Shown: piece after piece, positions 1 through 44,443 of the stretch | Position numbering within the stretch: the first letter of the stretch is position 1 | Layout: every line of letters starts with the position of its first letter | From: a virus | Length of the DNA: 44,443 nt | Virus genome (UHGV): UHGV-0035288 | Strand: one strand, 5' to 3' | The notes under the pieces: generated by a model | Told to the model about the DNA's origin: nothing | The model's input: the letters and a program-made list of their open reading frames with translations, nothing else | Database searches by the model: none | Program-made: the position numbers and the translations under genes

Positions 1-43
1 AAAAAAGGTGAAAAGATTGCCCTGTACGCGATAGATCCAGATC

Positions 44-529
44 ATGCAGAAGCGTGAGCAAAAAGATAGCTGGCGCACACCGCCAGCTTTATTTAAACCA
101 CTGCGTCGGAAGTACCGATTCCGTTACGATATGGCGGCAAGCGACACCAACCACCTGCTACCGCGTTACTTCACTGCGGAGCACAGCGCGCTTGATGCGG
201 ACTGGGCAGAGTTGAAAGGGTGGAAATGGTGCAACCCGCCATATTCCGATCCGCTGCCGTGGGTCGAGTGCGCAGCGCACGGACGCCGGACCGTCATGCT
301 ACTGAATCAGGACACGTCGACGAAGTGGGCGAAGCTGGCCCGGAGGACCGCCAATATGATAATTCTTCTTGACTGGCGGATTAGATTCATTCACGCCGTC
401 ACCGGCGAAGTCGGTCCGAGCAATAACAAGTGCCAGCAATTAATAATATTTGACGAAGCGCCGCCAGTAGGCAGCGCACAAATTGAAATAATGAGCGAGA
501 GTGAGCTACATGAATATCTTAGTCGTTGA
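44..529 (+). CDS. dam: DNA N6-adenine methyltransferase, phage Dam-type
   Basis: ATG at 44; in-frame stop at 32-34 prevents upstream extension. 161-aa ORF with NPPY catalytic tetrapeptide (WKWCNPPYSD) typical of N6-adenine MTases. No clear SD; may be coupled to a gene crossing the window junction. Confidence 0.6.
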   Translation: MQKREQKDSWRTPPALFKPLRRKYRFRYDMAASDTNHLLPRYFTAEHSALDADWAELKGWKWCNPPYSDPLPWVECAAHGRRTVMLLNQDTSTKWAKLARRTANMIILLDWRIRFIHAVTGEVGPSNNKCQQLIIFDEAPPVGSAQIEIMSESELHEYLSR

Positions 530-734
530 CCGCAGTATGCGCGTCGTGGACGAAATTGTTAAACGCTACCAAATTAACCCGAGGGAGAACAAAGTGCGGC
601 GGGTCAGTCGCCCGGAGCAATTGCTCGGCCTGGACCTTACCGGCTGGCTTGTAATGACTGCTAGCAGCCATCTTGTGTGTGGCACGTTTTCCGCCCGTAT
701 TGTTCGTGAAAATTTGATCAAGGAGTTGAAATGA
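510..734 (+). CDS. hypothetical small protein
   Basis: Track ORF starts at GTG 501; first ATG at 510 preceded by GAGAGTGAG. Overlaps dam 3' end; stop overlaps next start (ATGA at 731). Confidence 0.35.
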   Translation: MNILVVDRSMRVVDEIVKRYQINPRENKVRRVSRPEQLLGLDLTGWLVMTASSHLVCGTFSARIVRENLIKELK

Positions 735-1201
735 AATTACTGATTTGCGATTTGGATGGCGTTATTAACGGCTCAAGCGATGCGCGTGCCGACCTGGTGC
801 CTGGCATAAAAACTAAATCCACCTTTTGGGCGAAGTGGCACAAAGCGCATATACGCGAAGATCTGAACATGGATATGCTGCCGCTGCTGACCATGTACAA
901 AGAGCAAGGCTTCGAGATCGCGTATCTGACCAACCGGCAGCGAGAATGTTGGGACACCACCGCCGAGCAATTGGAGGTATTCCCGGTAGGCCGGTTGTTT
1001 ATGCGCCACATGCTGGACGACACCCCGCCACCTGAGTTTAAGGCGTGCGCCGTGTTCAAAATGGTGTGCTATGCCGACGTGTCGGAACTGGTCATCATTG
1101 AAGACTGTCCGAAGAACATCGCGGCAATTCGTCGGGCGTGCGGCGATCTGGTCCCGAAGATTTATGCGATAAACGTTGCAAAATTCACTTGCAACCAATA
1201 G
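731..1201 (+). CDS. HAD-superfamily hydrolase (phosphatase-like)
   Basis: AGGAG at 721-725 then ATG 731. N-terminal LICDLDGV matches HAD motif I (DxDG). Confidence 0.55.
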   Translation: MKLLICDLDGVINGSSDARADLVPGIKTKSTFWAKWHKAHIREDLNMDMLPLLTMYKEQGFEIAYLTNRQRECWDTTAEQLEVFPVGRLFMRHMLDDTPPPEFKACAVFKMVCYADVSELVIIEDCPKNIAAIRRACGDLVPKIYAINVAKFTCNQ

Positions 1202-1211
1202 GTTGGTTGCA
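1190..1211. promoter_or_regulatory. perfect inverted repeat TGCAACCAA-TAGG-TTGGTTGCA (paired copy of the recurrent TTGGTTGCA motif)
   Basis: Read directly at 1190-1198 and 1203-1211; overlaps stop codon of the HAD gene and precedes gene at 1266. Confidence 0.5.
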
Positions 1212-1265
1212 GTATCTTAACCACATCGGGAGGCAATACCGCCTCCCACTAAAACGGAAAACATC

Positions 1266-1757
1266 ATGAAAGCATACGAATACTGCAAAAACGCCGCCAC
1301 CACTATGGAACAGCGCGGGAAAGAAAACGGCTATGACAACGCGAAAGAAGAACGCAGCGCTAAACAGATCGCCGCCGTGTTTAACGCGCTTACCGGGCGC
1401 GACCTGTCCGAGCAAGAAGCCTGGACCTTCCTGATCTGCCTGAAGCTGGTGCGCCAGCACCGTAAGCACCAGGAAGATAATATCGTGGACCTGGTAGCGT
1501 ATGCCGCCCTGCTGGGCGAATCTTACATGACCGTGCATGATGAGATTCAGATCGACACAACGGCAGCACAATTCGAAAGCCTAAAAGGCTGGCATTCTTC
1601 CGCGGGCAAGACTGTTAAGGCCCGCGATTTTGGGGTCGTAGCCCCGGACGTCCAGCCTATGGTCGTGCTCACCGGCGAAGACGGGTCGAAAATCTGCATG
1701 ACGCAGGAAGATTTCCGCAACATGGAAAAAACACTGGTGACTGGCGCACTTAAATAA
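1266..1757 (+). CDS. hypothetical protein
   Basis: ATG at 1266; 163-aa ORF in early arm; no motif recognised with confidence. Confidence 0.5.
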   Translation: MKAYEYCKNAATTMEQRGKENGYDNAKEERSAKQIAAVFNALTGRDLSEQEAWTFLICLKLVRQHRKHQEDNIVDLVAYAALLGESYMTVHDEIQIDTTAAQFESLKGWHSSAGKTVKARDFGVVAPDVQPMVVLTGEDGSKICMTQEDFRNMEKTLVTGALK

Positions 1758-1799
1758 TTCTAATCGCGGGCCGAAGCCCGCATCAACGAGGACCACACG

Positions 1800-2375
1800 A
1801 TGTACGGCGAATATGAAATATCTGGTAAACAATTCCACCTGGCGGCAATGATCGCAAGCATCGAGTTTGACCAGTGGCGATACAAGTCCGACGCTTGCAA
1901 GCAAAGCCGTCTGGTCGGTGTGCTGGGTGAGATGTTTGCGGGCATGTACCTCGAAGGGCAGGCGGGCGGGCGTAGCTGTATCCCGCAAGGTTTGCTAATG
2001 CGTACCGGCCTGTTTAGCGCTAACACTATCGACCGCGGCGATATTATCATGGTCGGCAAGCGCAAGGTAAAATCCGGTCCCGACTTCCGCGAACATGTGA
2101 TCGATGCCGTCTGGACCTACGAGGTTAAGGCCACCAGCGGCATCCGTCGCGGACTGGTAGAGGCGCGTTGCGCCCGCGAATATCTTGCTCGTCGAGTTGC
2201 CGGTGTTATCCTGGTAGGCGTAGATTTCGGACAACATAGCGCGCACGGCGTGATCGAGGATATCGCAGAACCTTACGTCATTGTTAATGACTGGCCCTTA
2301 GTGGAAGTGGACGGGAAGGAGTATTACGAAAGCCCGCTGGTGCGGCGCAAAATGGACTGGGAAAACTCAAACTAA
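1800..2375 (+). CDS. hypothetical protein
   Basis: GAGGA SD then ATG 1800; 191-aa ORF, last gene before convergent terminator. Confidence 0.5.
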   Translation: MYGEYEISGKQFHLAAMIASIEFDQWRYKSDACKQSRLVGVLGEMFAGMYLEGQAGGRSCIPQGLLMRTGLFSANTIDRGDIIMVGKRKVKSGPDFREHVIDAVWTYEVKATSGIRRGLVEARCAREYLARRVAGVILVGVDFGQHSAHGVIEDIAEPYVIVNDWPLVEVDGKEYYESPLVRRKMDWENSN

Positions 2376-38227: not shown

Positions 38228-40515
38228 AAGACTTCGAACGCCTTTTTCTCGATACCGAGACATTTAGCGGGGTGGACCTGAAGAAAGTGGGCGCATACGC
38301 CTACGCAGAACACCCAACAACCGAGATTATGATTTGCACGTACGCCATAGACGAGGGCCGCGTGCAGACATGGGATTGCACCGAGTCCCCAACAATGCCG
38401 CGTGAACTGCGCAAGGCGCTCCGCCAGGTATCCCGCAAGAAAGCAAAAATAGTGATGGCTAACGGCCTCCTGTTTGACCGCCTGGTTATTCGCGAGAAGT
38501 GGGGCATTGACCTGCCGGTAGGCCAGATCGAGGATACCATGATTATGGCCTTTCGCCACGCGCTGCCGGGTAGCCTCGATATGCAGTGCCAGGTGTTGGG
38601 CGTCGACGCAGAGCACGCGAAGGATAAGGCGGGCAAGGCGCTGATCAAACGATTCTGTAAGCCAACCCCCAAGACCTACAAAATCCGCCGCTACACGCGC
38701 GAGACGCACCCCGAGGAGTGGGCTAAATTCCTGCGCTATGCCGCACTGGATATTATAGCGATGAGGGAAGTCTATTGGCGCATACCGGACTGGGGTAACA
38801 CGCCGAAGGAAGATGAAATCCTGCTTATTGACCAGTTGATCAACGACCGCGGCTTCTATGTGGACGTTGACCTGGCGAACGCCGCGATCAAAGCGGTGCA
38901 GGCGCATAAGGAAGAATTGAAGGAAGAAGCATGGGAGCGCTTCGGCGGTAAGCTGACAGGCAATGACTTCCTGCCAGCGCTGCGCGACCTGGCGCCTGCG
39001 TTCACAATCCACAACGCGCAGAAATCCACGCTTAACGACCTGCTGGAAGACCCGGACTTCCCCGACGAGGGCAAAGTGCTTATCGAGATGCGCCTCGGTG
39101 CGTCATCAACGGCATCGACTAAGTACAATCCGCTCGTTAATGGCTTATCCGCAGATGGTCGCCGTCGTGGGTGTCTCCAGTATGGCGGGGCGAAACGCAC
39201 GCTACGCTGGGCGGGCAAAGGCTTCCAGCCGCAAAACCTGGCACGCGGCGAGTATAGCGACGACCACGAAGGGAAGATTAAGCGCCGTGAAGGCGAGAGC
39301 GACGTTTCTTTTTGGGTCCGGTCGCACATGCTCACCAACGGCATCAACTCCCTGTTACGCGGGACAGCGCACTGGGCGTATGACATATCGAAGTTAACGG
39401 CCTCGACCGTTCGCGGGTGCATTATCCCGGCTAAGGGCAAGAAGTTTGTTGTAGCTGACTATTCTAACGTGGAAGGTCGCGGGCTTGCCTGGATCGCTGG
39501 TGAGAAAACCGCGCTAATGGTGTTTAGGGCGGGTCGCGATATCTATTGTGAAACTGCCGGTAAGATGTTTGGCCTCGACCCGGAATACATCAAAGCCAAC
39601 CGCAAAGACTTACGCCAGATTGGTAAGGCGTGCGAATTGGGGCTGGGTTATGGTGGCGGCGTTGCGGCGTTCCTGCAGTTTGCTAAAAACCTGGGCCTCG
39701 ACCTGTATGCGATGGCGGACGTCATGAAGGGCACATTCCCCGATCATATTTGGGCAGCGGCGAAACGGGGCTATGAATACGCCCGCATTAACGAAGCTAA
39801 GCGCCCGCCGAAGCCTGGCAAGAAAGACGAGCGCCCAACTTACATACTGCCGAAAAACGTGTGGTTGACGTGTGACGCGATCAAACGTATGTGGCGTGAG
39901 GCCCACCCGAAGACGGTAGCCTTTTGGGCAGAGCTTGAGGACGCGGTGTTGTGCGCAATCCGCAATCCGGGCAAAGCATACTGGGCTGGCGCGAACGTTC
40001 GCCCGGATGGTAAGAAAGCGCTCAAGATAGTCCGCACGAAGGCGAAGCATGACCCAACCTTCGACGAGGAGCGCGACGACCCGAACGCCGCAGGGTGGTG
40101 GTTGAAAATTGAGTTGCCGTCAGGGCGCATCATGAGCTATCCGGGCATTGCGCTGTCTGTCACTACCGAGATCGACGAAGATACCGGCAAGAAACGCACC
40201 AGCACCCGCATCAAATACCAGGGCGAGAATCAGACGACGCGCCAGTGGGGCTTCCAGTATACCTACGGCGGCAAACTGACGGAAAACATCGTGCAGGCGC
40301 TGTGTCGCGATATCCTCGCGTGGTCCATGCCTGGCGTTGAAGCCGCGGGGTATGAAATAGTCTTATCAGTGCACGATGAATTGATCACCGAAGTTCCGGA
40401 TACTGACGACTACACTACCGAGGAATTGTGCTCGCTGATGTGTGACCTGCCGATTTGGGCGAAAGGCTTCCCGCTTGCTGCGGAAGGCGACATTATGTAC
40501 AGGTACAGGAAATAA
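38224..40515 (+). CDS. DNA polymerase, family A, with N-terminal 3'-5' exonuclease domain
   Basis: 763 aa; GAGGA SD; Exo I motif FLDTETFSG near N-terminus; polymerase motif C SVHDELITEV near C-terminus. Confidence 0.9.
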   Translation: MKDFERLFLDTETFSGVDLKKVGAYAYAEHPTTEIMICTYAIDEGRVQTWDCTESPTMPRELRKALRQVSRKKAKIVMANGLLFDRLVIREKWGIDLPVGQIEDTMIMAFRHALPGSLDMQCQVLGVDAEHAKDKAGKALIKRFCKPTPKTYKIRRYTRETHPEEWAKFLRYAALDIIAMREVYWRIPDWGNTPKEDEILLIDQLINDRGFYVDVDLANAAIKAVQAHKEELKEEAWERFGGKLTGNDFLPALRDLAPAFTIHNAQKSTLNDLLEDPDFPDEGKVLIEMRLGASSTASTKYNPLVNGLSADGRRRGCLQYGGAKRTLRWAGKGFQPQNLARGEYSDDHEGKIKRREGESDVSFWVRSHMLTNGINSLLRGTAHWAYDISKLTASTVRGCIIPAKGKKFVVADYSNVEGRGLAWIAGEKTALMVFRAGRDIYCETAGKMFGLDPEYIKANRKDLRQIGKACELGLGYGGGVAAFLQFAKNLGLDLYAMADVMKGTFPDHIWAAAKRGYEYARINEAKRPPKPGKKDERPTYILPKNVWLTCDAIKRMWREAHPKTVAFWAELEDAVLCAIRNPGKAYWAGANVRPDGKKALKIVRTKAKHDPTFDEERDDPNAAGWWLKIELPSGRIMSYPGIALSVTTEIDEDTGKKRTSTRIKYQGENQTTRQWGFQYTYGGKLTENIVQALCRDILAWSMPGVEAAGYEIVLSVHDELITEVPDTDDYTTEELCSLMCDLPIWAKGFPLAAEGDIMYRYRK

Positions 40516-40793
40516 TGACACCAGAAGGCAAGATTCAAAGTCACCTGATGCGACGGGTGAAAGAGGTAGGCGGATTCTGCCGCAAAATGGCATGGGAGGG
40601 GCGCGCGGGTGCGCCCGATCTGATTATCATCATCAACGGCAAAATAGTGTTCGTCGAAGTGAAGCGCCCGGGCGGAAAACCGAAGCCACACCAGGTACGC
40701 GAGCATGAGCGGATGGCCCGCCGCGGTGCGGACGTTCGCGTCATAGACAACATCGCCTACTGTGATTTATTGGTTGCTGAATTGGTCGCATAG
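40515..40793 (+). CDS. VRR-NUC domain nuclease
   Basis: ATG 40515 overlaps polymerase stop (TAATG), AGGA SD; 92 aa; PD-(D/E)XK core PDLIIIINGKIVFVEVKRPGGKP...QVREHERM. Confidence 0.65.
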   Translation: MTPEGKIQSHLMRRVKEVGGFCRKMAWEGRAGAPDLIIIINGKIVFVEVKRPGGKPKPHQVREHERMARRGADVRVIDNIAYCDLLVAELVA

Positions 40794-41273: not shown

Positions 41274-42698
41274 ATGGCACGTTTCCGACGTCGCGAATAT
41301 CAGAAGTTGATAACCGCGTTCATCCTCAAGCATAAGCGATGCAATATATGGGCGACAATGGGGTCGGGTAAAACCGGCGCGACTATGTGGGCGCTGAATA
41401 AAATGTTCCAGACTGGTATCCTGTCCAACCAGGAGGACCGAGTATTGGTGCTGGCCCCGCTGCGCGTTGCATCCGGCACATGGCCCCCGGAACAGGAAAA
41501 ATGGCGCTTCCCCGCCTTGCTGGTAGTAGATGGCACTGGGTCGGAGAAGGACCGCATCGCCGCGCTTGAGAGCGACGCTAACGTGGTTTGTATCAACTAT
41601 GATGTAGTTGAGTGGCTTGTTGAGTATTGCGGCGACGAGTGGCCCTTTACGGTCGTGGTTGCCGATGAATCAACTAAGCTGAAAGGCTATCGAAGCAAGC
41701 AGGGGAGTAAGCGCGCCCGTGCGCTGGCAGCGATCGCACATAAGCGCGTCAAGCGCTGGATTAACCTAACCGGCACACCCGCACCAAACGGACTGAAAGA
41801 CCTATGGGGTCAGACGTGGTTTGTCGACGGTGGCGAACGCCTCGGCAGTAGCTATAAGGCATTCACGGATCGCTGGTTTATTAGCAAGCCGGTTAAGCCT
41901 GGCAGCTTCACTATGCAGCACGCCCCGCTAAAAAACTCCGAGAAAGAAATACAACAACGTCTGTCCGACGTATCCCTTACCGTTGACGCGGCTGAATACT
42001 TCGGATGTGACAAGCCAATCTATACGCCTGTTGTTGTGGACCTGCCTAAGAAAGCCCGCAAAATATACGACCAGTTCGAAGCGGAGCTATTTGCTGAACT
42101 GGAAAGCGGAACTGTGGAGGCCGCGAACGCTGCGTCGAAGACTATTAAGTGCCTTCAGCTTGCTTCGGGTGCCGTGTATAAAGTCGACGAAGACGGCGAG
42201 CGCACTGATGAATGGGTGAAAATTCACGACGCCAAACTGGACGCGCTGGAAAGTATCGTGGAGGAGTTGAACGGCGCGCCGTTGCTCGTCGCATACCAGT
42301 ACAAGCATGATCTGGCGCGTCTCAAGAAGAAATTCCCGCACGGCGTAGCGATGGGTAAGGGTAAGCAAGGGAATAAGGATATGGAAGCGTGGAACAGGGG
42401 CGAGATCCCCATCATGTTTGCACACCCGGCATCGGCGGGTCACGGACTTAACCTGCAGGACGGCGGACACCACCTTGCTATCTTCTCAGACACATGGAAC
42501 TTTGAGCACTTTTCGCAGATCGTGGAGCGTATCGGGCCGGTTCGCCAGATGCAAGCCGGGCACCCCCGTCCAGTATTTGTCTACATTATCCAGGCGCGCG
42601 GCACACTGGACGAACTGGTCGCCGAGCGTCGCGACAGTAAGCGCGATATTCAGGACGATTTGATGGAATACATGAAAGCTAAAAAGGCGCGCAAATGA
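41274..42698 (+). CDS. SNF2-family (DEAD/DEAH-like) helicase/ATPase
   Basis: Start moved to ATG 41274; 474 aa; Walker A MGSGKTGAT, DExx box VVADESTKLKG. Confidence 0.8.
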   Translation: MARFRRREYQKLITAFILKHKRCNIWATMGSGKTGATMWALNKMFQTGILSNQEDRVLVLAPLRVASGTWPPEQEKWRFPALLVVDGTGSEKDRIAALESDANVVCINYDVVEWLVEYCGDEWPFTVVVADESTKLKGYRSKQGSKRARALAAIAHKRVKRWINLTGTPAPNGLKDLWGQTWFVDGGERLGSSYKAFTDRWFISKPVKPGSFTMQHAPLKNSEKEIQQRLSDVSLTVDAAEYFGCDKPIYTPVVVDLPKKARKIYDQFEAELFAELESGTVEAANAASKTIKCLQLASGAVYKVDEDGERTDEWVKIHDAKLDALESIVEELNGAPLLVAYQYKHDLARLKKKFPHGVAMGKGKQGNKDMEAWNRGEIPIMFAHPASAGHGLNLQDGGHHLAIFSDTWNFEHFSQIVERIGPVRQMQAGHPRPVFVYIIQARGTLDELVAERRDSKRDIQDDLMEYMKAKKARK

Positions 42699-43390
42699 TA
42701 ATCTGGTCATTGTTTGACGGCAGCGGCTTGATGATTGAGCGTGCTGCCGAGGTGGGGCATAAGTGTTATTGCTTCAACTACTCCGAAGCCGACCACGGGT
42801 CGTACCTGGACTACCGGATTTATGGTCGCGGGATCCGATATCGCAATGAGTTTATTGATCTTGACTTTGTAGACCGCGCGATGAATGGCGATTTCGGTAC
42901 GCCGGATATCATCTACGCATTCCCGCCGTGTACTGATCTGGCGGTGAGCGGTGCACCAGCTTTCCCGCGTAAGCGTGCAAAAGACCCCGCCTTTCAGCTT
43001 AAGGCGGTGCGCACCGCGAAGATCGCCGCTTACCTGGGTGACTTCTTCGAAGTGCCATATATGATTGAGAATCCGCGCAGCGTGCTTTCCACACAGTGGC
43101 GTAAGCCAGACCACTCGTTTGACCCGTGGGAGTATGGTGGCTATCTGCCGGAGGATGACGTACACCCGTTGTTCCCGGAATACATCAACGCCCGCGATTC
43201 ATATCCGAAGCTGACCTGCTTATGGACCGGCAACGGCTTCCGTATGCCCGAGAAGAAACCTGTTTTCGTTGAAAAAGGGTACTCGAAGCAGTATAGTCGC
43301 CTCGGTGGTAAATCCGCTCGTACAAAATTAATCCGCTCACTCACCCCGCGCGGCTTCGCGATAGCAGTCAATGAGGAAAATTTAAAATGA
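42695..43390 (+). CDS. short DNA cytosine-C5 methyltransferase-like protein
   Basis: 231 aa; ATGA coupling to helicase; motif I-like SLFDGSG, motif IV-like FPPCTDLAVSG (catalytic Pro-Cys), ENV-like IENPRSV; too short for a canonical target-recognition domain. Confidence 0.5.
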   Translation: MIIWSLFDGSGLMIERAAEVGHKCYCFNYSEADHGSYLDYRIYGRGIRYRNEFIDLDFVDRAMNGDFGTPDIIYAFPPCTDLAVSGAPAFPRKRAKDPAFQLKAVRTAKIAAYLGDFFEVPYMIENPRSVLSTQWRKPDHSFDPWEYGGYLPEDDVHPLFPEYINARDSYPKLTCLWTGNGFRMPEKKPVFVEKGYSKQYSRLGGKSARTKLIRSLTPRGFAIAVNEENLK

Positions 43391-44035: not shown

Positions 44036-44443
44036 ATGAAAATTTTACAAGAAGAGAAGAATTACTGGGCAGCGCAATGCCTCGAAGCCCGCGAACAGGC
44101 CGAACGTGCGAACGCGTTGGCGGGCACCAACCAGGCGCTATATGAAGGAGAGAAGAAAGCGCGCCAGGAGCTAGCGGAGCGCTTCGGACTGCTATTCGAA
44201 TTGATGGGGATTATGCAGCGCACCGGATACACCACCAGCGTTGCACTAAACCGCATCACTGCCGAAGGGCTGCGCGATCATTGCAAACGTGCGGAGGAGT
44301 ACGTTCGTCCGAAGGGTCGCCAGTCTAAGATCGACAGGAAAGACCTTGTACTCATGGCGTGGCGCAACCCTACAAACGGCAGCATATACCCGAACGCGCG
44401 CCCGCTTAGTGCCGAGGAATCAAAGCGCGTGCAACGAATCATC
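44036..44443 (+). CDS. hypothetical protein, 3'-truncated at window end
   Basis: GGAGA SD then ATG 44036; open for 136 codons to the last base of the window with no stop. Confidence 0.45.
   Translation, partial: MKILQEEKNYWAAQCLEAREQAERANALAGTNQALYEGEKKARQELAERFGLLFELMGIMQRTGYTTSVALNRITAEGLRDHCKRAEEYVRPKGRQSKIDRKDLVLMAWRNPTNGSIYPNARPLSAEESKRVQRII

Follow-up and report, generated by a model that had tools for sequence, protein, structure and literature searches.

What function do the last three genes of the rightward, replication-gene arm of a Dhillonvirus serve, if it is not replication itself? The question is raised by the virus genome UHGV-0035288, a stretch of 44,443 nucleotides that was analysed at its full length (hereafter, the window). 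Three open reading frames (ORFs) on its plus strand, at 731-1201 (156 amino acids), 1266-1757 (163 amino acids) and 1800-2375 (191 amino acids), are the last genes before a terminator-like hairpin at 2376-2399, as the first-pass annotation of this DNA had described. That annotation had seen a HAD-motif protein in the first ORF and no recognised motifs in the other two, and it had taken all three, together with two methyltransferases upstream, for an accessory cluster of nucleotide metabolism or DNA modification, distinct from core replication machinery. The present analysis partly supports this interpretation. We favour a reading in which the three genes probably constitute the conserved distal end of an early/middle replication-arm operon, encoding proteins that act on nucleic acids and nucleotides and not in replication itself. 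Late in the early/middle programme, such a set would break down DNA, process its ends and handle the nucleotide pool.

Almost all of the 159 phage records matched in a megablast search with positions 1-2500 are Dhillonvirus (HK578-like siphophage) records from Escherichia and Shigella, the closest of them at 92-94% identity, and no record in the phage collection exceeds ~94-97% nucleotide identity over the two regions compared (1-2500 and the polymerase gene). An ORF leaving the 3' end of the window resumes in frame at bases 1-54, and the window is therefore a circular permutation of a whole genome, the complete ~44.4 kb genome of an E. coli Dhillonvirus (HK578-like coliphage). Replication genes occupy its rightward arm, which runs from ~34 kb through the window end and on to 2375, and tail and head genes its leftward arm. 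The proteins of Escherichia phage mckay (NC_073073 / MN850629) are ~98-99% identical to those of the window, and the gene spacing of the two differs by 29 nt.

All three ORFs are real genes and not chance ORFs, with matches in the PHROG database at 2e-36 (156-residue protein), 1e-103 (163 residues) and 1.5e-119 (191 residues). They are also core genes of Dhillonvirus under strong purifying selection and not sporadic accessories, because they are near-universal in ~158 Dhillonviruses, show low ratios of non-synonymous to synonymous substitution (dN/dS) and keep their order in distant relatives. Each of the three is found at Dhillonvirus-level identity in 153-158 phage records, the Dhillonvirus DNA polymerase being found in 158, and comparison with 16-17 relatives yields dN/dS values of 0.040 for the HAD gene, 0.068 for the N-terminal domain (DUF6378) of the second protein and 0.041 for the 191-residue protein. 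Three metagenomic relatives with 42-62% protein identity keep the same order as the window, consisting of Dam, a Ksap1-like gene, the HAD gene, one or two small extra ORFs, the DUF6378 gene, the nuclease gene, the terminator and a reverse tail fibre gene. To call these genes accessory, as had been done, is hence misleading: they occur in essentially every Dhillonvirus, are strongly constrained and remain in order even where relatives share only ~55% identity. 'Hypothetical' is their name in most GenBank records examined, others carry the names 'polynucleotide kinase' or 'phosphofructokinase', and scans with NCBIfam and PADLOC returned nothing useful for any of the three proteins.

The main correction to the first-pass annotation concerns the 191-residue protein encoded at 1800-2375, a clear but previously unannotated nuclease that, judging from its model, is probably an active enzyme of the PD-(D/E)xK superfamily. 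The family is very small, with seven clusters in an index of 5.8 billion proteins, while an exhaustive hidden Markov model (HMM) scan of 1.84 billion proteins recovered 15 representatives (E ≤ 1e-3), and the protein has no match in Pfam, NCBIfam or PADLOC. An AlphaFold2 (AF2) model built from seven sequences (predicted local distance difference test score, pLDDT, 81; predicted template modelling score, pTM, 0.80) comprises a helix at residues 34-54, strands at 59-62, 81-85 and 104-112, a second helix at 122-130 and a final strand at 135-143, which is the αβββαβ core fold of restriction-endonuclease-like proteins. Ten residues (G40, E44, G64, R68, D81, E108, K110, Y128, I161 and W165) are invariant in an alignment of 16 homologues that are 22-78% identical to the protein of the window. 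On the model, E44 falls on the first helix, D81 begins the second core strand and E108-x-K110 lies on the third, an arrangement that corresponds to the canonical PD-(D/E)xK catalytic set and provides a candidate active site. A basic, poorly modelled loop occupies residues 86-103. Comparison of the model with the PDB through Foldseek yielded nothing below E = 1, while its matches in BFVD are uncharacterised phage proteins and two entries named 'restriction endonuclease'. The claim that the second and third proteins are devoid of motifs does not hold, given the invariant E...D...ExK residues on a PD-(D/E)xK-like fold in the latter and, in the former, a DUF6378 domain that scores above the gathering cutoff. 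As a working mechanism, the 191-residue protein would be a Mg2+-dependent endonuclease with E44, D81, E108 and K110 in its active site, and its DNA substrates might be host or unprotected DNA, or branched intermediates.

In an alternative reading of the third gene, its product would be a recombination or structure-specific nuclease (a Holliday-junction resolvase or a flap endonuclease), or else a domesticated homing endonuclease, and would be functionally unrelated to the other two proteins. The predicted fold and active site are shared with enzymes of these kinds, among them archaeal Hjc resolvases, but the protein extends ~80 residues beyond a minimal Hjc-like core, and the genome already encodes another nuclease. 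This is a 112-residue VRR-NUC protein (40455-40793, plus strand; PF08774, E 5.9e-6), whose gene comes directly after the DNA polymerase gene and overlaps its last ~60 nt; it is predicted to be a second PD-(D/E)xK-type nuclease of the genome and would be the more usual candidate for junction resolution. The fixed position of the 191-residue gene in all ~158 genomes and the strong purifying selection acting on it also speak against an active homing element, and an active homing endonuclease was rejected because of this fixed position and the universal presence of the gene. A role in recombination or a homing origin is, in our judgement, unlikely.

For the first gene (731-1201), the earlier recognition of a HAD-motif protein is borne out and can be extended to all four HAD motifs. 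The DLDGV sequence at residues 7-11 forms motif I, with D7, L8, D9, G10 and V11 invariant among 14 homologues down to 41% identity. In the same homologues, motif II is represented by T67 (S in most homologues) and then by an invariant R69, motif III by an invariant K104 and motif IV by E124-D125, of which D125 is invariant, so that the motifs follow the canonical order. The pattern kept by the 14 homologues can be written as M1-K-L-x-I-C-D7-L-D9-G-V, R19, W33/W36-H-K, Y65, (S/T)67-x-R69, K104 and D125, with residues assigned to motifs from their positions and from the alignments with 2i33 and 4xrp, and not from a structure. The 156-residue protein matches PF03767 with 22.6 bits (E 8.3e-5), below the 27-bit cutoff, and scores far below the cutoffs of TIGR01533 and other NCBIfam HAD models; in the PDB, a profile of the 14 homologues matches Pnkp1 in its phosphatase domain (4xrp, E 1.4e-3), as well as an acid phosphatase of class C (2i33, E 7e-3).

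Database labels for this gene are varied. The protein falls in phrog_415 (2e-36), which PHROG files as 'polynucleotide kinase', its homologues in N4-like phages are labelled 'nucleotidase' or 'polynucleotide kinase', and some GenBank records name the gene acid phosphatase or nucleotidase. The kinase label, which is also used by Pharokka and several GenBank records, can be rejected: the protein is only 156 residues long, its HAD motifs span residues 7-125, and it contains neither a GxxxxGK(S/T) P-loop nor a kinase domain. We read it as a cap-less (minimal-cap), cytoplasmic, Mg2+-dependent HAD phosphomonoesterase, with a chemistry that would follow established HAD enzymology. The cytoplasmic location, without a signal peptide, is suggested because motif I begins at residue 7. 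By family chemistry, Asp7 would form the aspartyl-phosphate intermediate and Asp9 would act as general acid/base, with T67, R69 and K104 holding the phosphate and E124/D125 the Mg2+ ion. The substrate may be either a nucleotide monophosphate or the end of a polynucleotide that bears a 3'-phosphate, since the minimal cap and the nearest relatives, the Pnkp phosphatase domain and the class C nucleotidases, point in that direction.

In the protein encoded by the second gene (1266-1757), residues 16-85 match Pfam DUF6378 (PF19905) with 38.9 bits against a cutoff of 27.1 bits (E 1.1e-9), the protein belongs to phrog_9871 (1e-103), and 19 of its 20 homologues also match DUF6378. An alignment of these 20 homologues (112-235 residues) divides the protein into a conserved N-terminal part containing the DUF6378 domain (~residues 1-88; nt 1266-1529), a linker (~residues 89-127; nt ~1530-1646) that differs in length among very similar Dhillonviruses, and a conserved C-terminal domain of ~35 residues (nt 1647-1754), all on the plus strand. 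Homologues at least 68% identical to the window protein range from 130 to 199 residues, keeping the N-terminal ~88 and the last ~35 residues while the middle gains and loses segments; in one homologue (P0014), the linker segment 'EIQIDTTAAQ.DSLKG' is duplicated internally. Within the domain, ten residues (R17, E29, R30, K60, R63, D71, D75, Y79, L82 and E85) are invariant among 14 diverse phage homologues, a set drawn from twelve unrelated phage genomes. The AF2 model of the full protein, computed from the 20-sequence alignment, shows four helices (pLDDT ~50-60) followed by a β-β-α element and is too poor for a fold search (pLDDT 49), and searches of PDB sequences with this protein and with the 191-residue nuclease, using both single sequences and profile HMMs, gave chance hits only.

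The DUF6378 family has no known function, and membership therefore explains nothing mechanistically. The label 'phosphofructokinase', which stems from phrog_474 and phrog_1167 and has been copied to some GenBank records, is not tenable: Pfam scans at E ≤ 10 of both homologue sets (20 and 14 sequences) found only DUF6378 and chance hits, and the domain has a length of ~85 residues. A MazG-like or Nmad-type relationship, suggested by the label 'Nucleotide modification associated protein' that the SECphi18 RefSeq record gives to its DUF6378 protein, was also sought, and neither a Pfam match besides DUF6378 nor a PDB profile match was obtained. The genes that surround DUF6378 in other phages include C5-methyltransferases in Pantoea phage Nafs113, Pectobacterium phage Amona and Enterobacter phage ST22, where an HD hydrolase is also adjacent; ThyX and an anaerobic ribonucleotide reductase in a Vibrio N4-like phage; a dUTPase in Klebsiella phage BU9; DNA polymerase and a PD-(D/E)xK gene in Vibrio phage 1.245.O; and ThyX and Dam in a Faecalibacterium phage. 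Our best guess, and it is only a guess, is that DUF6378 has a role in binding or hydrolysing nucleotides, because of its fixed acidic and basic residues on helices and its gene neighbourhoods. In mechanistic terms, it would be a nucleotide-binding or nucleotide-hydrolysing helical domain, with four acidic and four basic residues in a fixed arrangement, tied to the small C-terminal domain through a disordered linker of free length.

Immediately upstream of the three genes are an anti-Tmn homologue of 154 residues, whose ORF was rebuilt across the window junction (44036-44443 and 1-54, plus strand), a Dam methyltransferase gene (44-529, plus strand; PF05869) and a Ksap1 homologue of 74 residues (510-734, plus strand; phrog_10685 at 2.5e-44); these genes and the phosphatase gene each overlap the next, end to start. 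Neither the anti-Tmn nor the Ksap1 homologue had been listed in the first-pass annotation. The anti-Tmn homologue is 82% identical to SM_S22 CDS0035, that is, to ORF35 of phage PhiSMS22, for which anti-Tmn activity has been shown experimentally (Yamashita et al., PMC11846954), whereas phage PhiSMA8 lacks anti-Tmn (PMC11846954). PHROG/Pharokka and RefSeq label this gene 'DNA ligase', an assignment that has no Pfam support and is superseded by the anti-Tmn homology. Ksap1 is a Dhillonvirus protein that is bound by KpAvs2 as its trigger, and ksap1 has been described as sitting between methyltransferase and phosphatase genes (PMC11564622). The homologue in the window is 57% identical to the Ksap1 of SECphi18, which its RefSeq record calls 'acid phosphatase', a label that nothing supports; it keeps the escape positions L47 and T50 and evolves much faster than its neighbours (amino acid identity ~62%, dN/dS 0.26 versus 0.04). 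Its gene is predicted to be translationally coupled to the phosphatase gene, because its stop codon overlaps the phosphatase start (ATGA), with an AAGGAG ribosome-binding site at 720-725. With an anti-Tmn and a Ksap1 homologue present, the gene neighbourhood has a host-interaction flavour.

In this setting, the three genes could be read as the continuation of an anti-defence block that begins with anti-Tmn. The phosphatase would then heal the 3'-phosphate or 2',3'-cyclic-phosphate ends produced by anticodon nucleases or HEPN RNases of the host, or destroy a nucleotide that serves as an immune signal, and the nuclease would destroy nucleic acids of host defence such as the multicopy single-stranded DNA (msDNA) of retrons. 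Such a role is consistent with the homology of the first gene of the block to a proven anti-Tmn protein and with the inclusion of the Avs2 trigger Ksap1, as well as with the identity of the best solved HAD relative, Pnkp1, which belongs to an RNA-repair system. Phage nucleases, moreover, are known triggers or antagonists of retrons, and one report describes a Dhillonvirus, 'phage98', that escapes Retron-Eco7 by mutating an unnamed protein of unknown function, which triggers the retron and is toxic together with it (PMC12640716). The same paper centres on activation by phage nucleases, and the 191-residue nuclease is a candidate for the phage98 trigger. Published escape mutants of Dhillonviruses map to SSB (Retron-Eco8), DNA polymerase (Borvo), the portal (RAZR), Ksap1 (Avs2; PMC11564622) and nmad5 (Tmn; PMC11846954), and none of these published screens maps to 731-2375. 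Anti-defence genes, however, are usually patchy and fast-evolving, as seen in the dN/dS of 0.26 for Ksap1 and in the lack of anti-Tmn in PhiSMA8, whereas the three genes are genus-universal with dN/dS values of 0.04-0.07. They also have no detectable ligase or kinase partner and no PADLOC match. We regard a dedicated counter-defence function as rather improbable.

The two methyltransferases provide a further context. Both are present upstream, as had been stated, but they do not directly adjoin the three genes: an HNH gene and the anti-Tmn and Ksap1 homologues lie between or beside them. The second enzyme (42695-43390, plus strand), a C5-type ('Dcm-like') methyltransferase of 231 residues with FxGxG, PPC and ENP motifs (phrog_757), matches nothing in Pfam-A at E ≤ 1 and lacks a sequence relative in the PDB; it is a divergent, compact C5-methyltransferase. 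Homologues of the 191-residue nuclease with 29-35% identity are found in ~44-49 kb siphophages of Klebsiella and Enterobacter, ~750 bp downstream of two methyltransferases and directly before the lysis genes, and one of these two methyltransferases is a Dam-family enzyme with 33% identity to the window Dam. In Pectobacterium phage Amona, the nuclease homologue lies 1.3 kb from a 267-residue DUF6378 fusion protein and a methyltransferase. These distant homologues of the nuclease (L007, 6001-6528; L008, 6001-6525; L032, 4047-4562 on the minus strand) are all annotated as hypothetical. The recurring neighbourhood of nuclease and methyltransferase is suggestive, but shared ancestry is an adequate explanation of the recurring gene order, because Dhillonviruses are relatives of Drexlerviridae.

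Taken at face value, this neighbourhood would fit a takeover resembling restriction-modification, in which the nuclease cuts host or competitor DNA that lacks the methylation of the phage Dam and C5 enzymes, and the phosphatase and the DUF6378 protein process the products. The downstream position of the nuclease relative to methyltransferases in both the Dhillonviruses and the Klebsiella and Enterobacter phages, and its proximity to one in Amona, agree with such a scheme, as do its structural neighbours, which include the type II or modification-dependent enzymes DpnI, NhoI, Eco15I and HincII, and the 'restriction endonuclease' names in BFVD. On the other hand, the gene order may reflect simple inheritance, four to five genes separate the nuclease from the methyltransferases in Dhillonviruses, and the DNA of the host may be protected. 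E. coli K-12 is already Dam- and Dcm-methylated, and K-12 hosts are the isolation hosts of many of the matched phages, so that host methylation would protect the host chromosome if the specificities coincide. We consider a restriction-modification-like takeover quite improbable. Still lower is our estimate for the fullest version of this idea, which we put forward as a long shot: that the nuclease and the phage Dam and C5 enzymes carry out a methylation-discriminating destruction of host or rival DNA, and that the HAD and DUF6378 proteins then clear away, or return to use, the nucleotides so released, which may be methylated. If true, it would define a conserved 'offensive restriction-modification plus nucleotide clean-up' module of T1-like and Dhillonvirus-like phages.

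In agreement with the first-pass annotation, homology searches identified no recognisable core replication protein among the three, and the setting of DUF6378 in other phages, next to ThyX, ribonucleotide reductase, dUTPase and C5-methyltransferases, makes it plausible that they take part in nucleotide metabolism or DNA modification. The reality of the genes, their conservation and synteny, the HAD motifs and the fold and motif of the nuclease are shown, and the substrates of all three proteins, any cooperation among them and their biological role are inferred. Several points weigh against the reading that we prefer, a conserved operon end whose products act on nucleic acids and nucleotides. 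The PF03767 match of the HAD protein lies below the gathering score and its PDB profile hits (E ~1e-3) are marginal; the DUF6378 model is unusable (pLDDT 49), PDB profile searches with it gave no relative, and the nucleotide-binding role assigned to it draws only on context and residue pattern. Operon order may be the only thing that brings the three genes together, their functions being unrelated, and the arrangement of methyltransferase and nuclease could be inherited and not functional if the Klebsiella phages mentioned above belong to Drexlerviridae, to which Dhillonviruses are related. Finally, the literature searched contains no biochemical or genetic data on any of the three genes.

The bidirectional intrinsic terminator at 2376-2399 is a G+C-rich hairpin between an A-run and a T-run, and it is common to the rightward operon and to the convergent tail-fibre gene, which ends at 2402 on the minus strand. 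It is terminator-like on both strands (-15.8 and -18.5 kcal/mol; z = -3.9 and -3.6 against shuffled sequences). The spacers before the DUF6378 gene (64 nt) and before the nuclease gene (42 nt) both contain stable hairpins. In the first of them, two plus-strand hairpins (1189-1212 and 1228-1247) fold with -27.8 kcal/mol and a joint z of -5.5. The former, a perfect 10-bp palindrome that overlaps the stop codon of the phosphatase gene, does not vary among four Dhillonviruses, in which the latter differs in length and sequence but remains a G+C-rich inverted repeat; the pair may act in the processing or stability of RNA, or as a palindrome bound by a protein. In the second spacer, the hairpin GCGGGC-CGAA-GCCCGC (1766-1781, plus strand; -12.7 kcal/mol) stands out weakly (z = -2.1). 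Rfam returned no match in 1-2600. In more distant relatives (L003, L005 and L006), the spacer between the phosphatase and DUF6378 genes holds one or two additional small ORFs.

The corrected annotation of this locus bears on a group of phages in wide use. Dhillonviruses belong to the coliphages that are isolated most often; they are candidates for therapy and serve as models in studies of the defence systems Avs2/Ksap1, Tmn/anti-Tmn, Borvo, Retron-Eco8 and RAZR. A predicted nuclease with an intact active site and a phosphatase without a kinase lend themselves to concrete experiments, and the nuclease can be compared with the Retron-Eco7 trigger.

Set against known systems, the three genes do not represent a new kind of system, and their value lies in a corrected annotation and in testable enzymology. 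Among characterised phosphatases, the 156-residue protein shares with the phosphatase domain of Pnkp-type enzymes (Capnocytophaga Pnkp1, 4xrp) the HAD fold family, the DxDG(T/V) motif, an (S/T)-x-R motif with an essential-looking R69 and a minimal cap. Pnkp1 is the top solved-structure match of its family profile, over an aligned stretch that covers profile positions 43-99 only, but the kinase domain, the P-loop and the ligase partner of Pnkp systems do not accompany the phage protein. T4 Pnkp is a Pnkp-type end-healing enzyme, and R19, an arginine ~12 residues past the nucleophile, is presumably the equivalent of its R176. With the class B/C acid phosphatases and e(P4) 5'-nucleotidases (PF03767; B. 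anthracis 2i33), the alignment spans motifs I to II, including W-x-x-W...Y-(L/I)-S-N-R, yet these enzymes are periplasmic and ~100 residues longer than the phage protein, which has no signal peptide or lipobox. The Pfam DUF6378 members in phages of Pantoea, Vibrio, Stenotrophomonas, Klebsiella, Pectobacterium and Enterobacter share the ten invariant residues with the 163-residue protein; most members of the family are a bare domain of ~90 residues or carry N-terminal extensions, whereas the Dhillonvirus form adds the variable linker and a C-terminal β-β-α mini-domain. Among PD-(D/E)xK nucleases, the comparators of the 191-residue protein are I-Ssp6803I (2ost), the archaeal Hjc resolvases (2wcw and 1gef), fusellovirus D212 (2w8m) and the catalytic domain of DpnI (4esj), at 7-14% identity. 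With respect to these enzymes, the Dhillonvirus protein has an additional helix and strand at its N-terminus, the basic loop of 18 residues and, at its C-terminus, ~45 further residues in which I161 and W165 are invariant.

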